A stretch of 64,000 bases of DNA, from the NCBI GenBank assembly GCA_036867785.1, contig CP145415.1, positions 496,001 through 560,000 of the forward strand. Reading direction: 5' to 3'. Shown here one piece after another: positions 5,164-54,219 of the stretch (position 1 is its first letter; the number at the start of each line of letters is the position of its first letter). The position numbers and the translations under genes are program-made. The stretch is from Plasmodiophora brassicae. Lineage: Eukaryota. The notes beneath the pieces were generated by a model. That model had not been told where the DNA came from. It worked only from the letters and a program-made list of their open reading frames with translations, and did not search any database.

Positions 5164-5372
5164 TGGCGAAACTGATGAACCAGGGGGGACGTTCGGCGCC
5201 GGCCGGGCAAACTCATGAACCTACATAGGACGTTCTAGAACCCGCATCCGATGGCAGGTTGCTTCCCCGGCTGCCAACGTCACAGACGGAAGCGGCAGGT
5301 CAGCGTTCGGTTGCTGGCCGGCCAGGAGCGATGGGAGCGGTTCTCGCGACCGTCCTGCGCCGGGCGGGCGGG

Positions 5373-6790: not shown

Positions 6791-9184
6791 CTAGGAGATG
6801 GTTGCCGCCTTGCGCTGGGCGGCGATGATCTTCTGCTTCGTGTCCAGCTCGGCGCGAAGCGCCGTGGTCTCCTTGAGGTGCAAGGTTTCGGTGCGTTCGA
6901 GGAGGCGCTCCAGCGTGCGCTGGTGATTGGACCGGAACCGCCAGAGCGCGTACAGCACAACGGCCGCGGCCAGGTACGGTGCACTGTTACCATGCATCAT
7001 CAGCAGTGCGCGGTGTGCTCTTCGAACGATGTCTGACACGTTGGTGACAATGCTGTACAGAATCGACAGGCCGAACTGTTCCGCGTAGGCCTCGAACACG
7101 TTGACGGGGACGTTGCCCGGCGCGCCGGCAAACGGGCCCAAGTTGCCGGCGCACGACCAGGACGAGTTCAGGAAGTACATGTACGTCAGCAGGCAGGTCG
7201 CCAACGTGACGTTGTAGAAATTGTTGAAGAACGTCGTCGTGTTCTTATCGGACCACGACGACAGCGGCCGGGACATGAAGACCGTCAGCTTCAGTCGCTC
7301 CCATTTGAAGTTCGTGAACAGCAGGAGCACACAGAGGATCGACCCGGCTGGGTACAGTGGAAGGGATATCCAGACCAGCGACTGGAAGTACAGGAGGTCG
7401 ATGATGTTCTGGCTGACACTAGGCGACACGGTGATCAGTCGACGGCGACACATCGTGCCTCGCAGTGCCATCAACTGAACCTGTACTCGCTGAGCTCGAG
7501 ACTCACGAACCGTTTCGCGACCTTCTTGACGATGTAGATGCCGGCGAGGATGATCTTGCTGACGAAGAATTCGGACAGAACCAGGTAGAACAGGCCAGCG
7601 CCGGCGGCGTCGACCCCACATGTGTACCCGTCGTGGGACACTGACAACGACCCCAACTGCGGCAGCAGGGCCTGCCCCTTGGCGATCGTGAAGTACGATA
7701 GGACGTTGATGAGGATATTGAGCTGGCGTCCAGCGTATAGTCGCCACATCTGGTGCTTGACGACGGTCGACGGGTTGTCCCAGCGTTCGAAATCAGTGAT
7801 CAGGAAGGTCAGCATGGGCAGCAGCGACCCAATGACACTGGTGGCGATCGGGGCCACCAGGCCCTGCACCTCATGCGGGAACCTATCCGCCACGGTCTTG
7901 TCGATCGTTAGGACGATGATGACGGTCCAGGAGGCCGCCAGGGCCGTCAGGTTCAGCAACAGCCCGAACGTGCGGCGGGCCCACAGCAGGGCTAGGTCCA
8001 TTGGCGTCCTGCCTCGAATTTTCTGCTGCAGGACATGCTCGCTCAACAGGATCTGCAATTGCCCAGCGACAGCGTTGCGACGATCGCTGGCCGCTTGGGG
8101 GTCCTTGATCGTGAAATCCCACAGGTTCAGCGTTCGCGAACTGAAATGCTTCGGGTTGTTCGAAGACTCCAGGACCTTGGCCCTGATGACATCCGCATTG
8201 TCGGCGATCGTCTTGCGAATCGCTGAGATGGCCGCCAGTGCAGCGCAGGCCACCAGAGCACTGACGTACAGGATGTCGCCTGAAGAGCTCGACGGGAACC
8301 CACTGTGCAAGAGGTATCAGCAAGGGGTCCGATGATCGGCGCTCTAACCAGACCTGAACAGCGTCCAGGTCGGAAGGACGCCCGTCAGCTGTGTGAACGG
8401 CGTCGAGCTGTTCAACCGCAGGCGAATCAGGTTGACGCCCCAGATGATGGTGTAGAAGAACGACGCCATGCATGTGGATTTGACAAATCCGAAAACGGCC
8501 AGGACGCCTTCCCCGTACCGGGACGACACGTAGCTGCGACACAATTGTTAACATGTGCATGAAGGTCGGGCCAGCGGCCAGACCTGAGATCGCGTCGGAA
8601 TGGGTCCACCCTGTACACCAACGAGTTCCACTGCTCGATCACGCTCGCAAACATGCCTGACGGTGCCGGCCCTTCGCCAGCACCGTCCAGGTGCGCTTCG
8701 TGCTCATCGTTGCCGGCGATAAGCTCCAGGCCCCTGAGTAACTCGCGGCCTGGATCGTCCAAGTCAGGATCAAGGACGCTTTCGAAAAGCAGGGTCGCCT
8801 ACGAAGCTCAGCGCGGCGTCGCTCGGCTTCGGCATCAACGGTTTCGCCGTTGGCGCCGCGTGTGGCAGGTAAGGCCCTGAGGGCTGCGAACGTGTCCGTC
8901 GCTTCCGACGTCAGTTTCGCTTCGGTCAGCTCCTGGACTAGGCTGGCCAGCCGCTTGTTCTCAGTCTGAAGCGCTTCCGTGCGCTGCATCGCCCTGTCCA
9001 CTCGTTTCTGGACGTCATCCAGCCGCGCCTTCATCGTCCGCTTCAACGTCTCCAGTTCGCCCATTGTCATCGTGATCATGTCGGTCGAATGCGCCGCCGC
9101 GAACAACGATGACGATTCATCGTCGGGCGGGTCGGGACTCCTCGCCCCTGTCGCATTCCTGCCGGTTTGCCACGATGCTGACAT
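6791..9184 (-). CDS. Transmembrane channel-like (TMC family) protein; multi-exon
   Basis: N-terminal coiled coil, then SRYGEGVLAVFGF, several TM helices, ITDFERWDNP...MWRLY, and the TMC-domain pattern EYRVSQNIIDLLYFQSLVWISLPLYP. Confidence 0.8.
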
Positions 9185-9269: not shown

Positions 9270-9512
9270 GCAGCTGCTGCTGCAGTCAACAGAGTGCCCG
9301 CAGCTGCAGTCATAAAAGACGTACCCGCAGCTGCAGACAACAGAGTGCCGCAACTGCAGACAACAGAGTGCCCGTACCTGCAGACACAGCACAGTGCCGC
9401 AGCTGCAGACACAGCAAAGTGCCGCAGCTGCAGACACAGCAAAGTGCCGCAGCTGCAGACACAGCACAGTGCCGCAGCTGCAGACCGCAGAGTGCCGCAG
9501 CTGCAGAGAGCT
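9270..9512. repeat. Minisatellite, ~9-10 units of 23-28 bp (consensus GTGCCGCAGCTGCAGACACAGCA(C/A)A)
   Basis: Tandem units are directly visible, nearly all containing (G)CAGCTGCAG. The array lies in the divergent intergenic region between the TMC gene and the CRN-like gene. Confidence 0.95.
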
Positions 9513-9645
9513 GTCGACCGCGAGCTGCGGGCCATAAATACAGGTGGCCGGGCGGATGTGGTGGTCGTGGATCGGGCGCCCCAGTAGCATCCGACATGTG
9601 TCCCAGCCCGGTGTCCGGCGACGATTCTTCGACATCAAACGTCTG

Positions 9646-11577
9646 ATGGCTGCGAAGAAGAGACGTCGGCCGACGAAGAAGAGGAAGGGGCCGGAGCTGA
9701 ACTATGGCCTGTTCCGGTCGCCAGTCCTGTACCCAGCCGGGCCGGTCGGCCAGGAGTTCTGGGAGCTGTTCCTGTCGTTACAGCCGAAGGAGCGCCCCGC
9801 GTTACAGCCCTGGGACGAACCACTGCGCTCGGCGCCGTTCGTCGAAGTGGACCGCATCGAGGACCTGCCGCTGCAGTCGCCAGACAACAATCTGACCCGA
9901 TGCCGCGTCCACCTTCCTTCGTCTTCTCCCTCAGGCTTCTCCACATGCCGGTCGTTGCCACCCTCTGGACGCGCCGTCGATCATCCATCGTTCGTCGACG
10001 TCGTCTGCCTGCCGTTCGCGATCGTCGGCCTGAAGAAGGCGGGGAACCCGTGCCCGCACGCCCTGTTCATCTCGGAGGACGACTACCAGATCGTCGGCGA
10101 CATGCTGAGCGTCGCGACACCGAATCTGATGGGCAACCCTGGCATCGGCAAGACCTGCCTGCACTACAAGATCCTGGCGTGCCTGATCCGACGCCCCGAC
10201 CTGCTGTCGCTGAACACCTGGCCGGAGACGCACCGGGTCGTCGTTCGCGTCGAGGGCACCCCGTCCGACTTCCAGACTCATTTCCATTACCTGGACGGCG
10301 GCCCGGTCCACACCTTGGACTTGCTCATCATCCCATCCGACCTGATCGAACGCGGCGACGTCCTGCTGCTGTACGAACCGGACCCGACGATGGTGTACCA
10401 GGCGCAGCAGATGGAGGTGCAGACGATCGCCACGATGCCGATCGCCGACTGCCCCGACCCGACCCGAATCGTGCTGCCGCCGTATGCACGACGCGACCCG
10501 GTCGCTGACGTATCCTGCTTCTACATGGCGAACCCGTCCGTCGAGCAATGCCTCCTCATGGCCGACGTCTTCCGTCTGGCGTCGTCCGACGACAACCACC
10601 ACCGCCTTCTGGATCGCCAGGCGGTCCTTGATCGCGTAGGGCAATTCGGCCCCGTCCCGAAGTACGTCCTGCCGACGAACGACGCCGCCGCCCGCCTGCA
10701 CAGCGACCTGCAACGCAGCAAGCTGACGACCATGTCGCTACAGGGCGCCCTGCAGGCCAAGTCCATCGTCGCCGATCGCAACTACGACGACTTCGCCGAC
10801 CCGTTCCTGCTGTCGCTGCATTCGAAACGGTCGCAGCCGGACCGGTACCGCAAGTTCCACCTGGACCTGGCCAGTCGCAAGGTCGAGGACGCCATCCGCC
10901 TCGAATTGCCCAAGTTCGACCTGAGAGCCGCCGCGAATCACGTGATCCGCTTCGGCGCCGGTGACACGTCGCTGTCGACCTGCCAGGTGACGCTCTGCTA
11001 CCAGGCGGTCTTCCTGCAGCTGGCGTGCACATCCGGCCTCGCCTGGGAAGACGCCACAACGACGTACTCGATGGTCTGCCACGAGCTCGACTGGCAGGGT
11101 GGCATCTACCCGCCCGTGTTCCGCGCGTTCGCCGTCAAGAAGCAACGTTGCCTTCAGGACGGGTCCATGACGTTCGCCAGCCTCGATGCCAGGTTCCTGT
11201 ACTTCCCGTCGGACTCGTCGTTCCCGTTCTTCGACGCGTTCTGGGTCGACGACCACAACAACCTGCACGGCCTGCAGACGACGGTGGGCGACCCGCGCCG
11301 GTTCCAGCTCGACGATTTCGTCGGCATGCTCGACCGGATGCAGATCACGGCCGAGCATCGCCCGAGCAAGATCGTCGCGCATTGCCTGCCGCTTCGCAGG
11401 GACGCGGACGCCATCGCCAACCTGAAGCCGGGCGCCTTCTGGGACAATGTTGACGACTACGCGCCGATCAAGGACACGGTCGGCCGGTTCGGCCTCGAGT
11501 TCCACGTCATCCGTGCCGCGCCGGGGTACCTGACACGGTCGTTCGACACGTTGCACGAGCTCGCAACGACGTCCTGA
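9646..11577 (+). CDS. Intronless Crinkler/RHS-type protein: basic NLS, P-loop NTPase and C-terminal restriction-endonuclease-like domain
   Basis: MAAKKRRRPTKKRKG; Walker A GNPGIGKT; Walker B-like LLLYEPD; FGPVPKYV; C-terminal YFPSDSSFPFFDAFWVD...LHGLQTTV, resembling the CR-REase FPxxD...QxT pattern. Confidence 0.75.
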   Translation: MAAKKRRRPTKKRKGPELNYGLFRSPVLYPAGPVGQEFWELFLSLQPKERPALQPWDEPLRSAPFVEVDRIEDLPLQSPDNNLTRCRVHLPSSSPSGFSTCRSLPPSGRAVDHPSFVDVVCLPFAIVGLKKAGNPCPHALFISEDDYQIVGDMLSVATPNLMGNPGIGKTCLHYKILACLIRRPDLLSLNTWPETHRVVVRVEGTPSDFQTHFHYLDGGPVHTLDLLIIPSDLIERGDVLLLYEPDPTMVYQAQQMEVQTIATMPIADCPDPTRIVLPPYARRDPVADVSCFYMANPSVEQCLLMADVFRLASSDDNHHRLLDRQAVLDRVGQFGPVPKYVLPTNDAAARLHSDLQRSKLTTMSLQGALQAKSIVADRNYDDFADPFLLSLHSKRSQPDRYRKFHLDLASRKVEDAIRLELPKFDLRAAANHVIRFGAGDTSLSTCQVTLCYQAVFLQLACTSGLAWEDATTTYSMVCHELDWQGGIYPPVFRAFAVKKQRCLQDGSMTFASLDARFLYFPSDSSFPFFDAFWVDDHNNLHGLQTTVGDPRRFQLDDFVGMLDRMQITAEHRPSKIVAHCLPLRRDADAIANLKPGAFWDNVDDYAPIKDTVGRFGLEFHVIRAAPGYLTRSFDTLHELATTS

Positions 11578-11732: not shown

Positions 11733-13516
11733 ATGATGCGGACGGTGCTGCTGATAGTGGTGGTGGTCGGCGTCTCGTATGGGCAGCTGGCCGACTGGTA
11801 CACGTGCCCAGCGTATGCCTGCCGCCCGCCCCACTGCCGCTGCGCCTCGTCGCGGTCGCCCGTCGACTCCCCGCCCATGTTCATCGTCCTCACGCACGAC
11901 GACGCCGTCCACAGTTTCTCGACGAACACGGTTCTGAACGGTGGGGCCTCGCATGCATTGCTCGGCAAGCGGCCCCCCACTCGTCGCCTGATATCGTATC
12001 GCAGTGGTTCGCGGGTTGTCGAACCCGAACGGGTGCGACCTGCCCGTCACCTGGTACGTGTCTGTCGAGTACACGCTGCCGCACCTGGTTCGGCACGTGT
12101 ACGACATGAACCATGAGATCGCGACGCACACGGTGCACCATGTCGGCCTGCCCGACCGGGACGAGATCGTCGGGTGCCGCAACTGGCTGCGGGACCAGGC
12201 CGGCATCCCCGAGCACGAGCTGCGAGGGTTCCGAGCCCCCTACCTCATGCACGACGTCCGGCAGAGGCGCACCCTGCACGACAACGGGTTCGCCTACGAG
12301 TCGTCCATCAACCAAGCCGCCGACAAACGGCAGTTGTTCCCGTACACGCTCGGTAGGCTGGTCCCCTCCCGGCGCGGGACCGGTGTAGTAGTACTGACAA
12401 CGGGATAGACCATGGCGTGGCGATCGACTGCTCGAAGGGGACAGGGCCGTGCGCCCCCGAGTAAGTCGTACAAGCGCCGGCCCCACACACGAGGGGGCAG
12501 CCGCCTGACCCGTTTCGCAGGGAATCGTATCCGGGAATGTGGTCGGTCCCGCTCTGGACGCTGCCGGGCGCCTCCAACTCGATGGACATCATCGGGGACG
12601 CCTACGAGCAGTACATGAACGAGGTTCGTCCCTGGGAGACGCGCACCTCCTTGCGACCGGCCTGCACTGACCGGCACGACAGTTCAACTCGAAGTACCAT
12701 GGCAACCGTTCGCCGCTGGGCGTCTTCTTCCACTCCGGATGGCTGGACGCGCACAGCGACCAGGTGCGACGGTTCCTCGCCGAGGTGACGTCGGCGCACG
12801 ACGACGTCTGGGTCGTGACCAACTGGCAGCTCATCGAATGGATGAAGAACCCGGTGTCGGCTGCAGAGGTACGTGCATCGCCGTATCACATGTTGGACCT
12901 GCGTGCTGATCGCCGGTTGCCCCAGTACCGATGGCAACAGACGCGGGCCCGGTTCTGCCCGCGATCCCCGCGTGGCCCCTTGCCGCCCGCCTCCGGGTGC
13001 CTGCACGGGACCTGGGACGGCGCCGCCTACCGCTGCGTCTGCCTCGGCGAAGGGAACCCGTCCGCCAACGGCTTCTGTCGCGGGTCGTCCGGTGCCTGCG
13101 ACGTCCCCAAGTCGTACGCCGACGGCGCGTTCACGTGCGACGGTGAACCAGAGGCGCCTGCCCAGCCCGATGGCCCGTCGTCGACGTCGGACGAGACGGA
13201 CGCGTCGCACAGCGAGCCGGCAACGACGGAACCGCCATATGCGAAACCGAAACTGACGATCCGCATCGAGATCAGCAAGGAGCGTCGGTCGTTCTGCGCC
13301 GACCTGATCGTGAAGAACGCCGGGCGGCAGGCATTGCAGAAGACGGTCCGGGTGCGTCGTGCGTTAACGGGTCGGTACGCGATCCGCGACGACGACAGCG
13401 ACGGCGGCATCGAGACCGATGGCAGGTCATACGTCGCGTGGCGTGTCCCGAACGGCCTGCGACGGGGACGTACCCATACGGTTTCCTTCTGCGCCGATGG
13501 GCGCCTGCGTACCTGA
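11733..13516 (+). CDS. Secreted chitin deacetylase-like polysaccharide deacetylase (CE4), with Cys-rich/EGF-like and possible carbohydrate-binding C-terminal modules; multi-exon
   Basis: Signal peptide MMRTVLLIVVVVGVSYG; CxxPxCRC; LTHDDAV; NPNGC; HEIATHTVHH; GFRAPYL; FPYTLD; NRSPLGVFFH; VWVVTNWQLIEWMKNP. Confidence 0.9.
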
Positions 13517-24828: not shown

Positions 24829-25969
24829 ATGTCGGCTTGGATCGTCGTTGCCATCGTCGTGCTTCACGTCACCGTGCTGGGCGCGCCTGCTGCACACCGA
24901 GATCAGAACAGCACCAGTGTGCCTCGATGTGTTGCACAGTGTGACGACGACAACTCGCATGCTGCCATTCTGGGTGATATTCTCGACGAAGTATCGTACT
25001 GTGATGGCGGGTTCTCCACCGGTCCTCTTCGGCCACATGTTGACTGGGTCAGCGCGAAGTGCATTCGTTGGCGCCGTAACGACGACGGCAAACGTGTTCT
25101 TGTCGGTCAAGGGTCATTTGGCAAAGTCTACCTGGCTCGATTCGGTGCTGACGATGTCGCCGTTAAGAAGTTCAAGGAGCAGCATTCGTGTCGCCACGAA
25201 CTAGAAGCCAGTATCGCGTGTAAAGATATCCCAGGCATCATTCCTTTCCTGGGAATCACACCGTTAGACGACCGCCAATACGGTCTCGTCACACTATTGG
25301 CGAAACACGGCACGCTGCGCCACATCATTCATTCATCAGATGTCTCGTCGGAATGCCTACTTCAGCTGATGATCGACGTTTGCAGTGGCGTCGCGGCTCT
25401 GCATTCGCTGGGAATCGTACACGGCGACCTTACCCCAACCAATATCTTCGTCAGGGATTCTTTGTCAGGGCCGAAGGCCCTAATCGGCGATCTGGGAACC
25501 GCCGTTTGCCTTAAACGCCATCAGCCTATTCCGGACCGCTGCTTCTTCCAAACCGTAATCGAGCAGAATGTTGTCGACGCCGCCTATTCCGCTACTGATT
25601 TCTGTGCCTCGGCAGTGTACCGTGAATTATGCAGCACCAGAGCAGCTGGCGGCGGGAGCGAAGCACCCTTACGGGATCGGAAGTGTGTGCTGGGGAGCGC
25701 CAGCGGATATCTGGTCCCTTGCCGTCATCCTTATCGAGACCCTCACTCGCAAGATGTGGTTGCCGTTCCATCGTGATCACGACCCGCGCCGGTACTATAG
25801 GCACATCGTCCGCGATGGCAAACGCCCCGTCCCGCCTGCCCATGCAATGTCGGCCCCCTTACAGCACACTGTTGCTCGGTGCTTAGACATTGACCCGCTA
25901 TCCCGGCCCACGGCCGCCTGCCTTCAGGCAACTCTACAATTCGAGCTCAAATACCGAGCCGCCACGTAA
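24829..25969 (+). CDS. Signal-peptide-bearing TKL-like protein kinase (non-RD), two exons
   Basis: MSAWIVVAIVVLHVTVLG; LVGQGSFGKVY; VAVKKF; IVHGDLTPTNIFV; IGDLG; intron ~25554-25616; CTVNYAAPE; ADIWSLAV; CLDIDPLSRP. Confidence 0.88.
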
Positions 25970-27693: not shown

Positions 27694-28563
27694 ATGATGA
27701 TGGTGATGATGTGGCGGCTCGCGGTGGTCGTTGTTGTTCTTGCCGTGTCCGCGAACGCGATCGGGTTCCTGCGAGGGTTACGGGGCGCACAGCGCCTCGG
27801 GCCGACGCTCCCACGTTATCCTGTGCGCCTATACCAACCGCGACGCTATGCGACCGCAGTGGACCCGCTCCTGCTCTCGACCTGTGCGCACGTCGTTGGC
27901 GGCCGGGACAGGATCCAGGTGCTGCTGGATAGGGAACGGCATCAGGTCTTCAGTCGTGACCCCCTGGGACGGACCCAGCTGGTCGTCGCGGCTGTCAACA
28001 ACCTCGCTGACGTTGTCAGCGTTCTGCTCGAGAAAGGCGCCGACCCCAACGAACCATGTTCGCTGACTGGTCTCACGCCGCTCATGCACGCTGCTGTACG
28101 AGGCCACCGCGATATCGCCTGGGTGCTCGTCCGCCATGGCGTCGCCGTCGACGACGCCAGGTCCGGAACAGGGTACACGGCGCTCATGTTCGCTGCTGAA
28201 CGCGACCACCCCGGCATTGCGTCCCTGTTGCTCGCGAACGGCGCCGATGCGAACGCGCGCAGTACGAACAAACGGTCGGCGTTGCACCTGGCTGTGTCTA
28301 ACGGCAGCGATAACGTCGTGCGTCTCCTCGTCAACGCCGCGGACGTTGACCTGGACGCAAAGGACGACGATGGGCGAACGGCACTGCACATTGCCGTCCT
28401 GAAGGATGCCGTCGGCACCGCATTACGTCTCGTTGCATACGGCGCCGATCCAACGCTGACGGACGACCATGGCAAGACGGCCGCCGACCTCGCAGCGGAC
28501 CCGTCGGCGTACGCCGCCATGTTCGCCGGCGTGCTCGCCTCGATCCACAACAGACACGAGTAA
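27694..28563 (+). CDS. Secreted ankyrin-repeat protein (~5 ANK repeats), intronless
   Basis: Signal peptide MWRLAVVVVVLAVSANA; repeats GLTPLMHAA, GYTALMFAA, KRSALHLAV, GRTALHIAV, GKTAADLA. Confidence 0.93.
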   Translation: MMMVMMWRLAVVVVVLAVSANAIGFLRGLRGAQRLGPTLPRYPVRLYQPRRYATAVDPLLLSTCAHVVGGRDRIQVLLDRERHQVFSRDPLGRTQLVVAAVNNLADVVSVLLEKGADPNEPCSLTGLTPLMHAAVRGHRDIAWVLVRHGVAVDDARSGTGYTALMFAAERDHPGIASLLLANGADANARSTNKRSALHLAVSNGSDNVVRLLVNAADVDLDAKDDDGRTALHIAVLKDAVGTALRLVAYGADPTLTDDHGKTAADLAADPSAYAAMFAGVLASIHNRHE

Positions 28564-32695: not shown

Positions 32696-32751
32696 CCCCA
32701 AAAAAGAACAGATCTCCCCCAAAAAGAGCAGACTCCCCAAAAAAGAGCAGA
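32696..32751. repeat. Three ~20-bp tandem units (CCCCAAAAAAGAGCAGA(C/T))
   Basis: Directly visible between the WD40 stop and the DONSON start. Confidence 0.8.
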
Positions 32752-48391: not shown

Positions 48392-50029
48392 ATGCTGGCC
48401 TGGGTGTCGATGCTGGTCGGGCAGCAGCTGCTGTCCCGGTGCCTGACGTTCCTGTTGAATGTCGGCGTGACGCGGGCGATGCCGATCGACGAATACGGTG
48501 TGACCGTGAACCTCGCGCTGCTGGATGCGACCGTGCTGTTCGTGTCGCGCGAGCCGCTGCGGCGCATAGCAATGCGAGGCACGTCGCCTGCGCATGTTCG
48601 CTCTTGTGTCAACCTGTCGTGGTTCGTGTCGATTCCGGTTTCTGTTGTGATTACGATGGTGGCGTCTTGGTTCTGGACTGCACCGAAATATTCAACGTGC
48701 ATGTCACTATACAGTTTCGCGCTGGTTATTGATATGCTGTCTGAGCCGTTTTACTTGGTCACGTTAATCGAGTCGAGGGTCGGACGTCGCGTTGCGTTCG
48801 AGTCATTTGCGACAATTCTTCGCGTTACTGCGACATTTGCTCTCGTCGTTGCCCCGTTCGCAATGGGCATTAACGCATTCGGATGGGCTCAGCTTGTATA
48901 TGCGATTACCAAGCTGGCGGCTTTCGTTGGCGATGCGATAATGTGGCGCTCGACCCTAGCTCTCCCGACATTCCTTGATAATGGCAAGGCCTTTGATGCC
49001 GATGTGTCCGGACTTGGTGGAATGTTTGCTATTCAGACGGTCGAAAAATACCTATTGACAGAAGGAGAAAAGATTGTCCTTGTCGGCATCGGCAACGATT
49101 TGCAAGCACAAGGTGTCTATGCACTTGTCCAGAACCTGGGTTCCCTCGTTGCCAGGTTCCTACTGCAGCCGATCGAAGAGGTTGCCGCCATACATTTCTC
49201 GAAGGTCTGTGCCCTGCCTTTGCTCCGTCGGAATTCAGCTGACGTCCATCCAGGAAGGGCGGTCTGCTGCGGCGTTTCAGGAAATAACGTTTCTGACCAA
49301 ATTCATGGTCCTTCTCGGATTGGTGTTTGTTGTGTTTGGCCCTGCATATTCCTTCGTCTTGCTCCACATCCTATATGGGTCCCTGTGGAGCCAAGGCAGT
49401 AACGCAGCCAGTGTCCTCTCGCTGTACTGTGTCTACGTGTTAACGTTGGGTGTAAACGGCGTAACTGAAGCATTCATGCTCTCGCTGATTTCTAAACAAG
49501 AATTGCAAACGTATAGCATTCTGCTGGTACCGTTCTCAGGTACTTCTTCGTTGCGCTTGTATGGCATTTGTTGTTAATGTCGATACTCCAGGGCTATACC
49601 TTTTGCTGTCTACCGCCCTGATGCCCTTTGGAGCAACTGGCTTGATTCTGGCTAACTCGTTGTCAATGTCGTCCCGCATTGCGTACAGCCTGTGGTTTAT
49701 TCGCAAGCATTTTCAAACGACATGGAACGACCTACTTGCTGCAATATTGCCCAAATTTTCAACAGTGTCCCTGATGGCTGTGGTTCCTATGATTCTATAT
49801 GCAAGCTATTCTGGTTTCAAGGTTCGTCCTTGTCGTGTTTGCATTCGTGGTTGTGAGACGATCCCGGTAGGTTCGTTCGGACCCTTCTTTATCCGGGTTC
49901 GCATGTCATATCGCTGTCGGCATTGTCTGCCTCATATCTTCCGCCGCAACTGTTTGGAAACGCGAGAGAGAGTTGGTAGCAACTGGGCGCTCCCTGTTTG
50001 GAAAGCGTGCACGGCAGCATGCCGAATAG
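48392..50029 (+). CDS. RFT1: RFT1 (Man5GlcNAc2-PP-dolichol translocation protein); multi-exon
   Basis: QLLSRCLTFLLN, LLDATVLFVSREPLRR, KYLLTEGEKIVL, QGVYALVQNLGSLVARFLLQPIEE, YCVYVLTLGVNGVTEAF, GLILAN. Confidence 0.96.
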
Positions 50030-52433: not shown

Positions 52434-53310
52434 TCGAACCCGCTCTGCACCTTTCGTCGCCCCGGGGCGGCGGACCCACGAAAATCACACCGCGGCGGAC
52501 AAGCTGCAGTGCGACGTGCGAACTCGTCCAGGGCCCGGGTTACCGCCTCCGGTACCTTCCGTCTTGGGCGCCCTGACGATATTGTGCGGGGGCACGTGTG
52601 CGGCGCGCGGGTGTGCCGAGGCGCCCATATCTACACCGGAGTCCATGGTATGCAAGGGCGTGTGCCGACGGCGCTTTGCGCCCATGACGCTATGACGTGT
52701 TCCTGGAACTGGATCTCGCGGTGAGAGGGACCCCGTCCCAGACCGTGCATCAAGGCATATACGTGCAAATGTGCCAGTCACGCCGGTATGCGAAGTCGGC
52801 GGTTATTGCAGGCCCGATCGGGAATTTGGAAACGGTGCGACAGGCACCGCGTTCTTTCCCAGTTGGCTGGCAGGTGTTGACCAAAGCAAAGCAGCACATA
52901 TTGTACGTTGTCACTACGTGGTGAGCCTCAACGCACAGGGGAGCGATGTTTCTACACGATCCTTATCTTGCGCGCCAAAGGAGCGTATAAAAATACAACT
53001 CCCCTGCACGTTGAGTACAATGCCACACCAACGGGTCCTGACAACTTGTAGCCCACACAGAAATCGACTGCGCTCAATTTGGCGCATGTCTTTGTTTGAC
53101 TTTAAAGTGGTCCTGGTGCGGCCGTTTGTCAAGAGTTGCGATGACATGTTGTGGTGGGTCAACCTACCGTCACGATGATTTACCTACGTACCTCCCTACC
53201 TATGTATGTACTGTAGGTAGCTGACCACGATCATAATGACCAACGACCACACTGCCGTACGGATTCCGCGGCGCAGTCCGTCATCGGCGTCCGCCCCGCC
53301 GAGAGCTGCC

Positions 53311-54219
53311 ATGGCAACGGCGCTTTCTGACAGTGCGAAATCATCCGCCGCCGCCGCCGCATTGTCGAAGGCCGAGAACAAATTCATTCGACTCTGTGAG
53401 GAATTCCCCGACGGTCTCCCCGATGACGTCCTGCAGTCTCGACTGGAAAGCGTGCCGATTGAAGTTCGCGCCAAGATTATCAACTCGCTGTCGGGCCGCG
53501 GCCGGCTTGTCCTGCTGCAGGGCGCCAATACGATCTTGTACAAGTTGATCAGTGCCGAAGATGCGGAGAAATTCACAGGCCTGGACCATGAAGGGATCCT
53601 AATCTATCGGCTTGTCGAACAGGCCGGCGATCGAGGCGTCTGGATTCGGGAGCTGCGCGTGAAGTCTGGCCTCACCCAGCAAGTCGTCACGAAGCTCATC
53701 AAGATGCTCATGCAGAAACGTCTGATCAAGGAGATCAAGTCCGTTCAGAACAACCGAAAAGTGTACCTGAAGTTCGACGTCGAGCCTAGCCGCGACCTGA
53801 TTGGTGGGGCACTGTCGCAAGGTGCGGACCTGGATGCTGAGTTCGTCAAGATCCTTCGTCAAGCCTGCGTGAAGTTCATCGACAAACAGTCGGCAGCGTC
53901 TGCGGAAGACATCAGCGCGTTCCTGGTGTCGTCGAAGATCTCCAAGATCGCATTCGAGGGCGACGACATTCTTCAGATCATCAACTCGCTGCTGTACGAC
54001 GGCACCATCGAGAAAGTGCCGGAAAGCTCGTCAGGCGGCGCCTTCTCAGGCAAGCGGAAGCGTGAGGAGACCCTGTATCGGATTGCCAAGCTACCTATCG
54101 AGGTCGACTATTATGCATCAACGCCATGCTGTGTGTGCGTCGTCGCCGACATGTGCTTCGACGGTAGCGATATCTCGCCTACTGCCTGTGAATACTATCG
54201 GGCATGGCTCGACTTCTAG
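53311..54219 (+). CDS. POLR3F: RNA polymerase III subunit RPC34/RPC6, intronless
   Basis: IYRLVEQAGDRGVWIREL, LIKEIKSVQNNRKVYLKFDVEPSRDLIGG, LLYDGTIEK; C-terminal Fe-S motif PCCVCVVADMC...ISPTACEYYRAWLDF*. Confidence 0.96.
   Translation: MATALSDSAKSSAAAAALSKAENKFIRLCEEFPDGLPDDVLQSRLESVPIEVRAKIINSLSGRGRLVLLQGANTILYKLISAEDAEKFTGLDHEGILIYRLVEQAGDRGVWIRELRVKSGLTQQVVTKLIKMLMQKRLIKEIKSVQNNRKVYLKFDVEPSRDLIGGALSQGADLDAEFVKILRQACVKFIDKQSAASAEDISAFLVSSKISKIAFEGDDILQIINSLLYDGTIEKVPESSSGGAFSGKRKREETLYRIAKLPIEVDYYASTPCCVCVVADMCFDGSDISPTACEYYRAWLDF

Follow-up and report, generated by a model that had tools for sequence, protein, structure and literature searches.

In published descriptions, proteins of the CR (Crinkler/RHS) class figure as toxins, effectors or selfish elements directed to the nucleus. 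According to PMC5289972, PMC6131194 and PMC11342252, the class of Zhang et al. (2016) joins a nucleoside triphosphatase (NTPase), a helix-turn-helix and a restriction-endonuclease (REase) domain in one architecture. True CRNs are said to have no real signal peptides and NTPase+REase modules to stem from mobile elements (PMC5289972), REase-bearing CRNs are reported in Rhizophagus (PMC6131194), elements with a CR-type NTPase and REase are said to include Medea1 (PMC11342252), and header-degenerate Crinkler-like selfish genes have been described (PMC12957317). Trypanosome RHS proteins operate together with Pol II and chromatin inside the nucleus and serve the parasite's own transcription (PMC6393297), and CR-ATPases are described as near two mitochondrial STAND proteins, mS29/Dap3 and RNA12 (PMC8195603). 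In the clubroot parasite Plasmodiophora brassicae, whose mitochondrial genome is large, rich in introns and open reading frames (ORFs) and ~3x that of Spongospora (PMC6823432), CRN-related proteins of unknown function have already been reported as candidate effectors, with reference to Zhang 2016 (PMC5772912, PMC7415369). Here we describe one CR gene of this organism, located in a 64,000-nucleotide stretch of assembly GCA_036867785.1 (contig CP145415.1, positions 496,001 to 560,000; the whole stretch is hereafter called the window).

The gene is real, transcribed and intron-free, and encodes 673 amino acids from an ATG at 9556 (plus strand, 9556–11577). We favour, at a little short of an even chance, the reading that its product is a domesticated CR NTPase working on the nucleic acids of the parasite's own organelles, imported into mitochondria when translated from Met1 and possibly sent to the nucleus when translated from Met31. 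Such action on its own mitochondrial (perhaps nuclear) nucleic acids is more likely than a role as a secreted weapon. This is suggested by presequence-like starts in all three family members of the genome, by the resemblance of these starts to mitochondrial controls, by the public 673-residue model, by eroded nuclease positions, by a lipoyl-domain fusion in a metagenome relative and by a coding sequence that varies at one synonymous site only. By analogy, the AUG layout of Pif1, the closeness of CR-ATPases to mS29 and RNA12 and the domestication of RHS proteins suggest the same. A preliminary description made from the sequence alone had the family right, and probably erred in the start, the likely address and the idea of a mobile element.

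A transcribed, single-exon gene of the CR class

The frame in which the gene was first delimited (9646–11577, plus strand), given as a single exon of ~643 amino acids, is indeed open over 643 codons, has a GC content at third codon positions (GC3) of 0.88 and includes the motifs quoted for it, KKRRRPTKKRK, GNPGIGKT, GPVPKYV, FPFFD and LQTT; only its start has to be moved, as ATG 9556 gives 673 residues. The 673-residue protein is found exactly in NCBI, UniRef, nr, MetaClust and Logan, and the 643-residue form is missing from the searched public protein collection that holds the longer one; the public entries are gene predictions and no proof of the start.

Contigs from four runs (four studies; 24 runs are listed) skip the GT-AG introns of both neighbouring genes, because of which we judge all four to be RNA-derived. 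None of these contigs, which show neither strand nor start, contains a splice joint inside 9556–11577. An intron suspected in a Ser/Pro-rich stretch near 9880–10000 (GC3 0.63) was rejected, as the stretch is unspliced in 4/4 runs, and the ORF differs between runs by one synonymous single-nucleotide polymorphism, in one run. Two loose contig ends, one in run X16 (31 nt before 9579) and one in run X2 (43 nt after 10580), are probably chimeric; no splice site fits the X16 end at 9579.

The lack of introns, singled out at first as noteworthy, is real and not unusual. Long coding-like open stretches are frequent in this genome, and the intronless state is therefore ordinary for it: 494 kb sampled contain 27 such stretches of at least 450 amino acids, some possibly antisense shadows, and three of the 27 belong to the CR family. 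The genome's own mS29 gene is likewise a single open frame, of 520 amino acids.

Family membership was reached through relatives. The window protein itself matches no Pfam family (PF07999 and PF20147 included) and not the trypanosome RHS model TIGR01631. An exhaustive phmmer search returned 17 proteins at E<=0.001, namely a self fragment, two paralogues and distant relatives at 20–37% identity, those with names being from Amphimedon, Aphanomyces and a Batrachochytrium-labelled record. Among the aligned relatives, 9/19 match TIGR01631 (best E 7.7e-7) and 4/16 match PF07999, and the nearest ESM Atlas clusters are CRN/RHS (0.94–0.98 by features). Judged indirectly from these sequence matches, kinship to the CRN/RHS NTPases is supported, as is the CR architecture, and the original call of a Crinkler/RHS-type NTPase with an REase-fold domain is likewise supported, by the TIGR01631 matches, the Atlas clusters and a STAND-type NTPase model.

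Other searches added little. Word-indexed homologue searches found nothing with the protein or with alignment A1, and six proteins with residues 200–760 of P0009. Neither 264 candidates from viral contigs nor 175 from prokaryote genomes included a relative, in searches with one short pattern that do not demonstrate absence. Profile scans with PF07999 and PF20147 matched nothing in the genome, nor any of 14 controls, and are hence uninformative. PADLOC gave two weak single-member matches, and a PDB sequence search nothing better than E 0.064. Metagenomes yielded 13 related loci from 378 candidates, multi-copy, often broken and, in L073, in tandem, with two CR copies ~2.9 kb apart.

The AlphaFold2 model of the window protein (19 sequences; predicted local distance difference test (pLDDT) 74.1, predicted TM-score 0.76) consists of a low-confidence first 50 residues, with pLDDT <50 at residues 1–24 and 34–49, a pre-NTPase module, a P-loop domain and a C-terminal alpha/beta domain, with no ubiquitin-like header. 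The pre-NTPase module is common to the paralogues and outside relatives, and belongs to the family core, not to a header. Foldseek found 37 matches for the NTPase with E<=0.001, Clp/Hsp104, NLRC4 and CED-4 at their head. The VIA fold search reached a best Z of 9.4 (root-mean-square deviation (rmsd) 5.5, 239 residues aligned), with archaeal ATPases at Z 9.4 and 8.8 and further matches to NLRs, TnsC and Cdc6, values just modestly over the tool's noise level of 7–8; a viral fold library returned generic ATPases only. The modelled domain is of STAND/AAA+ type. Mitoribosome chains, which would be mS29, make up six of the top 14 VIA matches (Z 8.1–8.8, rmsd 4.1–4.6, over residues 100–381). That the window protein is mS29 itself or its replacement was considered and rejected: PF10236 matches one other locus, mS29-named, and hhalign gave a probability of 0.3. 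Set against 20 outside relatives, the NTPase side keeps Walker A, Walker B, position 293 and positions 360/365, and has lost the near-invariant positions 295, 369 and 415–416, a pattern with which NTP binding would be retained.

The N-terminal header and the C-terminal domain

The preliminary description reported no secretion header. An LxLFLAK motif and a signal peptide are indeed absent: LxLFLAK or HVLVxxP occurs in 0/25 family N-termini scanned, and the window protein has no signal-peptide-like hydrophobic stretch. What was overlooked is a header of another kind, 30 residues resembling a mitochondrial presequence. These residues carry a net charge of +6 with one acidic residue, have a hydrophobic moment of 7.7 and include RRFF, which we take to be a cleavage-like motif of mitochondrial presequences. 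Their codons have a GC3 of 0.73; the other two frames give 0.53 and 0.57, and the rest of the ORF 0.88. The starts of the two paralogues, L002 and L003, have a net charge of +7 with zero and one acidic residue, respectively, and L002 has no in-frame ATG ahead of the conserved core other than the one at its presequence-like start. Presequence-like N-termini are thus found in 3/3 family members of the genome, and they are mutually unalignable.

We compared these starts with the background of the genome, using a loose rule (net charge >=+4, <=1 acid, R>K within 30 residues) and a strict one. In 494 kb, the loose rule is passed by 6/35, 1/20 and 12/61 coding-like ORFs and by 58/261 non-coding-like ones, about 20%, and the strict rule by 2/35, 1/20 and 2/61 coding-like and 11/261 non-coding-like ORFs. 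At a background near 0.2, three passes in three have a chance of about 1 in 100, with the rule set post hoc. Eight presumed mitochondrial proteins of the organism (two of the citrate-synthase family, five lipoyl-domain proteins and mS29, with starts picked by eye) have Arg/Trp-rich, Lys-poor starts, a style shared with the CR family headers, and 6/8 pass the loose rule. In the metagenome protein P0012 (898 amino acids), a single prediction that could be a fusion, an insertion or a chimera, a CR NTPase-REase is preceded by an N-terminus that looks like a presequence and by a PDH-E2 lipoyl domain of mitochondrial type (TIGR01349, E 1.6e-26).

Of the outside relatives, 2/22, both metagenomic (L073 3650–5113 and L070 139–915, GC 0.36–0.41), start with a hydrophobic signal peptide, after which come Phe and a stretch poor in acidic residues. 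In this they resemble diatom plastid-targeting signals.

The C-terminal domain, folded alone, reached a pLDDT of 74.7. The preliminary description had proposed a structural comparison of both domains; it supports the STAND/AAA+ type for the NTPase, as above, and leans towards REase for this one. No single fold match is significant: BamHI, Hef/XPF, YaeQ, NucS, SduA and OkrAI are among the Foldseek matches listed, all at E>=0.23 and a TM-score of about 0.2, and 11 of the first 12 are nucleases that we take to have the PD-(D/E)xK fold. In VIA, alignments longer than 100 residues were obtained only with the N-terminal domain of Avs3 (Z 4.2, 139 residues) and with McrBC (Z 4.1, 120), level with helical noise, and a wide VIA search with the C-terminal model gave no Z >=5. 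An ESM Atlas structure match of residues 470–673 reached a TM-score of 0.57–0.68 to CR/RHS clusters. On these models, a restriction-endonuclease fold is probable.

The state of the presumed active site is mixed. Positions 560, 574 and 576 match the family, and the core Asp, Gln and Thr are kept. Position 483 in helix 1, invariant in 17/17 outside relatives, is not kept, nor are positions 581 and 583, each kept in 11/15. The window protein thus lacks a complete family-type active site. Nuclease positions are eroded further in L002, and L003 lacks the whole domain. Throughout the family in P. brassicae, cutting would therefore be weak or abolished, and the proposal of an active nuclease toxin has become doubtful, given that positions held by outside relatives are lost here.

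Table 1. Positions of the CR gene, its parts and the motifs around its start in the window.
Feature	Position	Strand	Basis or remark
Whole ORF, single exon: CR-type NTPase, helical linker and probable REase-fold domain	9556..11577	+	Public protein, RNA contigs, AlphaFold2 model
Residues 1–30, Arg/Ser/Trp-rich, nearly acid-free, mitochondrial presequence-like	9556..9645	+	Composition, controls, low pLDDT at residues 1–24
Second in-frame ATG (Met31) and basic run (residues 34–44) like a nuclear localisation signal; putative short nuclear form	9646..9687	+	Sequence
Out-of-frame 16-codon upstream ORF, its TGA overlapping the second in-frame ATG (TGATG)	9596..9646	+	
TATA-like CATAAATA	9533..9540	+	23 nt ahead of Met1, 113 nt ahead of Met31
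Pre-NTPase alpha/beta module (~residues 60–185)	9733..10110	+	Alignment A1, BLASTP with paralogue from residue 75, model
STAND/AAA+-type P-loop NTPase with lid and helical linker (~residues 186–470)	10111..10965	+	Fold search, conservation table
Walker A	10132..10155	+	
Walker B-like LLLYE	10363..10377	+	
C-terminal domain, probable PD-(D/E)xK/REase fold	10966..11574	+	FPFFD 11221–11235, LQTT 11272–11283
25-bp minisatellite, 9.3 copies	9279..9507	.	Fills most of the 372-bp divergent gap

Weighing the readings

If translation begins at Met1, the product would be a precursor with a mitochondrial presequence that is imported and cleaved; the short basic run behind it, if left on the mature protein, could aid nucleic-acid binding. 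This run, like a nuclear localisation signal (NLS), starts three residues past Met31, directly after the second in-frame ATG, and a dual mitochondrial/nuclear form is allowed for that reason. A Met31 form, with the NLS first, could arise by leaky scanning, by re-initiation after the upstream ORF or from a downstream transcription start, and would go to the nucleus. The STAND module, switched by NTP, may then bind or remodel organelle (perhaps nuclear) DNA or RNA, with the REase-fold domain mostly binding nucleic acid and its cutting weak or nil. A wider proposal, which we consider doubtful, is that plasmodiophorids have redirected a CR NTPase-REase of toxin or transposon origin to mitochondria of their own, the second AUG supplying a nuclear form. 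The three members, one nearly intact, one with an eroded nuclease domain and one lacking it, would act jointly on the unusually intron-rich mitochondrial genome, whether in handling nucleoids, processing intron RNA or controlling mitochondrial inheritance, and targeting peptides for organelles would count as a type of CR header not recognised so far.

Several points weigh against mitochondrial import from Met1. The two rules are home-made and were fixed after viewing the three N-termini; the strict rule passes 0/8 mitochondrial controls, and the loose rule passes 3/22 relatives outside the genome, P0012 among them, close to the background rate. A pyrimidine stands at -3 in all three family starts, whereas 7/8 mitochondrial controls have a purine there. 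The TATA-like box, if functional, could favour transcripts lacking Met1, an argument that is weak because the motif is not enriched before coding-like starts (34/153, against 35/159 in a reversed control). The main contig of one run begins at 9579, although contigs cannot show starts, and older public models of both paralogues (P0020, P0006) have different 5' ends. Low polymorphism spans the whole 6-kb region and so gives no sign of selection on the CR gene, and two core-motif residues of the nuclease (560, 574) are kept, which is compatible with activity.

The best surviving alternative, in our judgement rather unlikely, is that translation really starts at Met31, with the upstream ATG a chance occurrence, and that the product is a domesticated CR/RHS protein confined to the nucleus that acts on the parasite's chromatin or transcription. 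The NLS-like run directly after Met31, the G at +4 and the precedent of RHS proteins working with Pol II and chromatin (PMC6393297) would all fit, the TATA-like box is placed so that Met1 could be bypassed, one contig starts at 9579, and in so GC-rich a genome the loose rule in any case lets through some 20% of arbitrary ORF starts. Yet a transcript that starts past 9558 meets the out-of-frame ATG at 9596 first, and this is the only one of the three ATGs with a purine at -3 and thus has the better context; the extension also has a coding-like GC3, and both paralogues have presequence-like starts and no N-terminal NLS-like run (L003 has an internal Arg run at 112). The nuclear address given in the preliminary description is therefore at best half of the picture, the run after Met31 being there and the upstream ATG adding a presequence-like header. 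Were targeting nuclear only, the gene would simply be another domesticated RHS-like protein.

That the protein is delivered into the host as a CRN-like effector or toxin, takes an unconventional path to the nucleus or mitochondria of the plant, and damages or binds host DNA, appears improbable. The CR architecture, the intracellular life of the parasite and the coverage of the gene by RNA contigs would suit such a role; real signal peptides are reportedly missing from true CRNs as well (PMC5289972), and CRN-related proteins are listed as candidate effectors of the species (PMC5772912, PMC7415369). Against it stand the absence of a signal peptide, an LxLFLAK/HVLVxxP motif and a ubiquitin-like header, and a family of three old copies only, with almost no variation between runs and eroded nuclease positions. 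In practice, we would advise that this gene not be listed among candidate CRN effectors.

We give similarly little credence to an active conflict nuclease inside the parasite, be it directed against mobile elements, viruses or a partner's mitochondrial DNA after cell fusion, or a Medea-like selfish killer. Both Walker motifs and the Asp, Gln and Thr at the core of the nuclease motif persist, Medea1 is said to belong to the CR-NTPase+REase elements (PMC11342252), and the mitochondrial genome is intron- and ORF-rich (PMC6823432), but the losses at the helix-1 position and at the two positions kept in 11/15 relatives speak against cutting. Neither an antidote-like partner nor presence/absence variation came to light: the 20 listed datasets carry 0.91–1.00 of the sampled words, in a list of a kind that cannot show absence.

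The same three genomic loci were found with the window protein and with P0012 as queries, and two of them with P0004 and with the C-terminal domain; since the search of the genome (25.3 Mb, 20 contigs) scores best candidates only, copy counts are lower bounds. L002 is full length (32% identity by BLASTP), and L003 has 484 amino acids, a degenerate Walker A and no nuclease domain; the paralogues are 32–35% identical. In a tree the three form one clade (94/91, not starred), of which we are unsure given long branches and skewed composition. L002 (1318–3348) occurs in two allele classes that differ at 11/676 residues, all within the N-terminal 384, unlike the window protein, which has no variant within its public cluster. 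The paralogue count and inspection of flanks, set in the preliminary description as a test of mobility, thus yielded three old loci with no terminal repeats bracketing the gene; a DNA search of the genome returned, besides the gene itself, only a 228-bp stretch of one paralogue with 71% identity, hence no young copy, and no intron-bearing parent was found. Without terminal repeats or young copies, and closely flanked by ordinary genes, the gene is unlikely to be an active transposon or retrocopy, and its recent mobility is largely refuted. An autonomous transposon or recent retrocopy is accordingly the least credible reading, very improbable even though NTPase+REase modules are described as mobile in origin (PMC5289972) and outside metagenome relatives are multi-copy, tandem and often broken, and the earlier suggestion of a selfish or retroposed element is not supported, long exons being common in the genome.

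Genomic setting and comparison with known systems

The CR gene and a spliced gene 372 bp away are arranged head-to-head; on its other side a spliced polysaccharide deacetylase gene follows after ~155 bp. The upstream gene (6791–9184, minus strand) encodes an N-terminal coiled coil and has a weak TMC-domain match (E 0.014); all four runs differ from the window at 8484–8485, within it. The downstream gene (11733–13516; PF01522) has a signal-peptide-like start by eye, and in 4/4 runs RNA contigs are continuous from the CR gene into it, which reflects overlap or read-through, not a single transcript. Minisatellites rich in GCAGCTGC, with a period of 25–27 bp, lie just upstream of three gene starts, those of the CR gene, a PQ-loop gene and L002; the arrays outside the window are at 5274–5452 of L012 and 5033–5199 of L013. 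As a mark of the family (iteron or element end) the pattern was rejected, as it occurs at two genome places of which the other is beside the PQ-loop gene; the L002 array has a period of 27, and L003 has no array. Two runs skip 75 nt (three units) of the window minisatellite, a length allele or an assembly collapse. L002 is itself head-to-head with an SRF/MADS-box gene. Elsewhere the window encodes a protein kinase (24829–25776), an ankyrin-repeat protein (27694–28563), Rft1 (48392–49402) and the RNA polymerase III subunit Rpc34 (53236–54219), and has further tandem arrays at 32696, 39567, 39775 and 46671.

Compared with CR proteins at large, the window protein has the same order of a STAND/AAA+ P-loop NTPase, a helical region and a probable REase-like domain. 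It differs in having a short presequence-like peptide and an NLS-like run in place of a ubiquitin-like or helical header, and in its eroded nuclease positions and three old copies, as opposed to an expanded family. With the oomycete and chytrid CRN effectors (PF20147 header) it shares an NLS-like motif and probably the type of C-terminal enzyme module, but not LxLFLAK, HVLVxxP or the ubiquitin-like header, and it gives no sign of secretion or rapid diversification. Trypanosome RHS proteins (PF07999, TIGR01631), whose profiles are matched by its relatives and not by the protein itself, offer a precedent for use in an organism's own nucleic-acid metabolism, in the form of a large, nuclear family that works with Pol II and chromatin; literature searches, by title or abstract start, turned up no mitochondrial RHS form. 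The CR class and its presence in P. brassicae are already known. An organelle-targeting header on a CR protein was not found in literature searches, most subscription papers being outside their scope, and would be provisionally new. Import into the parasite's own mitochondria, if true, would widen the role of the family.

For the two AUGs, the closest parallels are enzymes unrelated to the window protein, an analogy limited to the targeting mechanism. RNase H1 reportedly has two AUGs that flank its mitochondrial signal, and is said to be dual-targeted. The same arrangement is a documented dual-targeting layout in Pif1 (10.1101/2024.01.21.576553). In both, as proposed for the CR gene, a first AUG and a presequence precede a second AUG that gives, or here would give, a nuclear form.

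The comparison with mS29/DAP3 and RNA12 (also known as Yme2) concerns the NTPase. mS29 differs in having no REase domain and no sequence-profile similarity to the window protein. All share the described STAND kinship, mitoribosome chains are among the best fold matches, and mS29 and RNA12 bear presequences, as the window protein may. If mitochondrial import from Met1 is borne out, the CR gene would be functionally linked to these mitochondrial cousins, would offer a candidate factor for the mitochondrial genome of P. brassicae, which is poorly understood, and would represent another mitochondrial domestication of the STAND branch, beside mS29 and RNA12.

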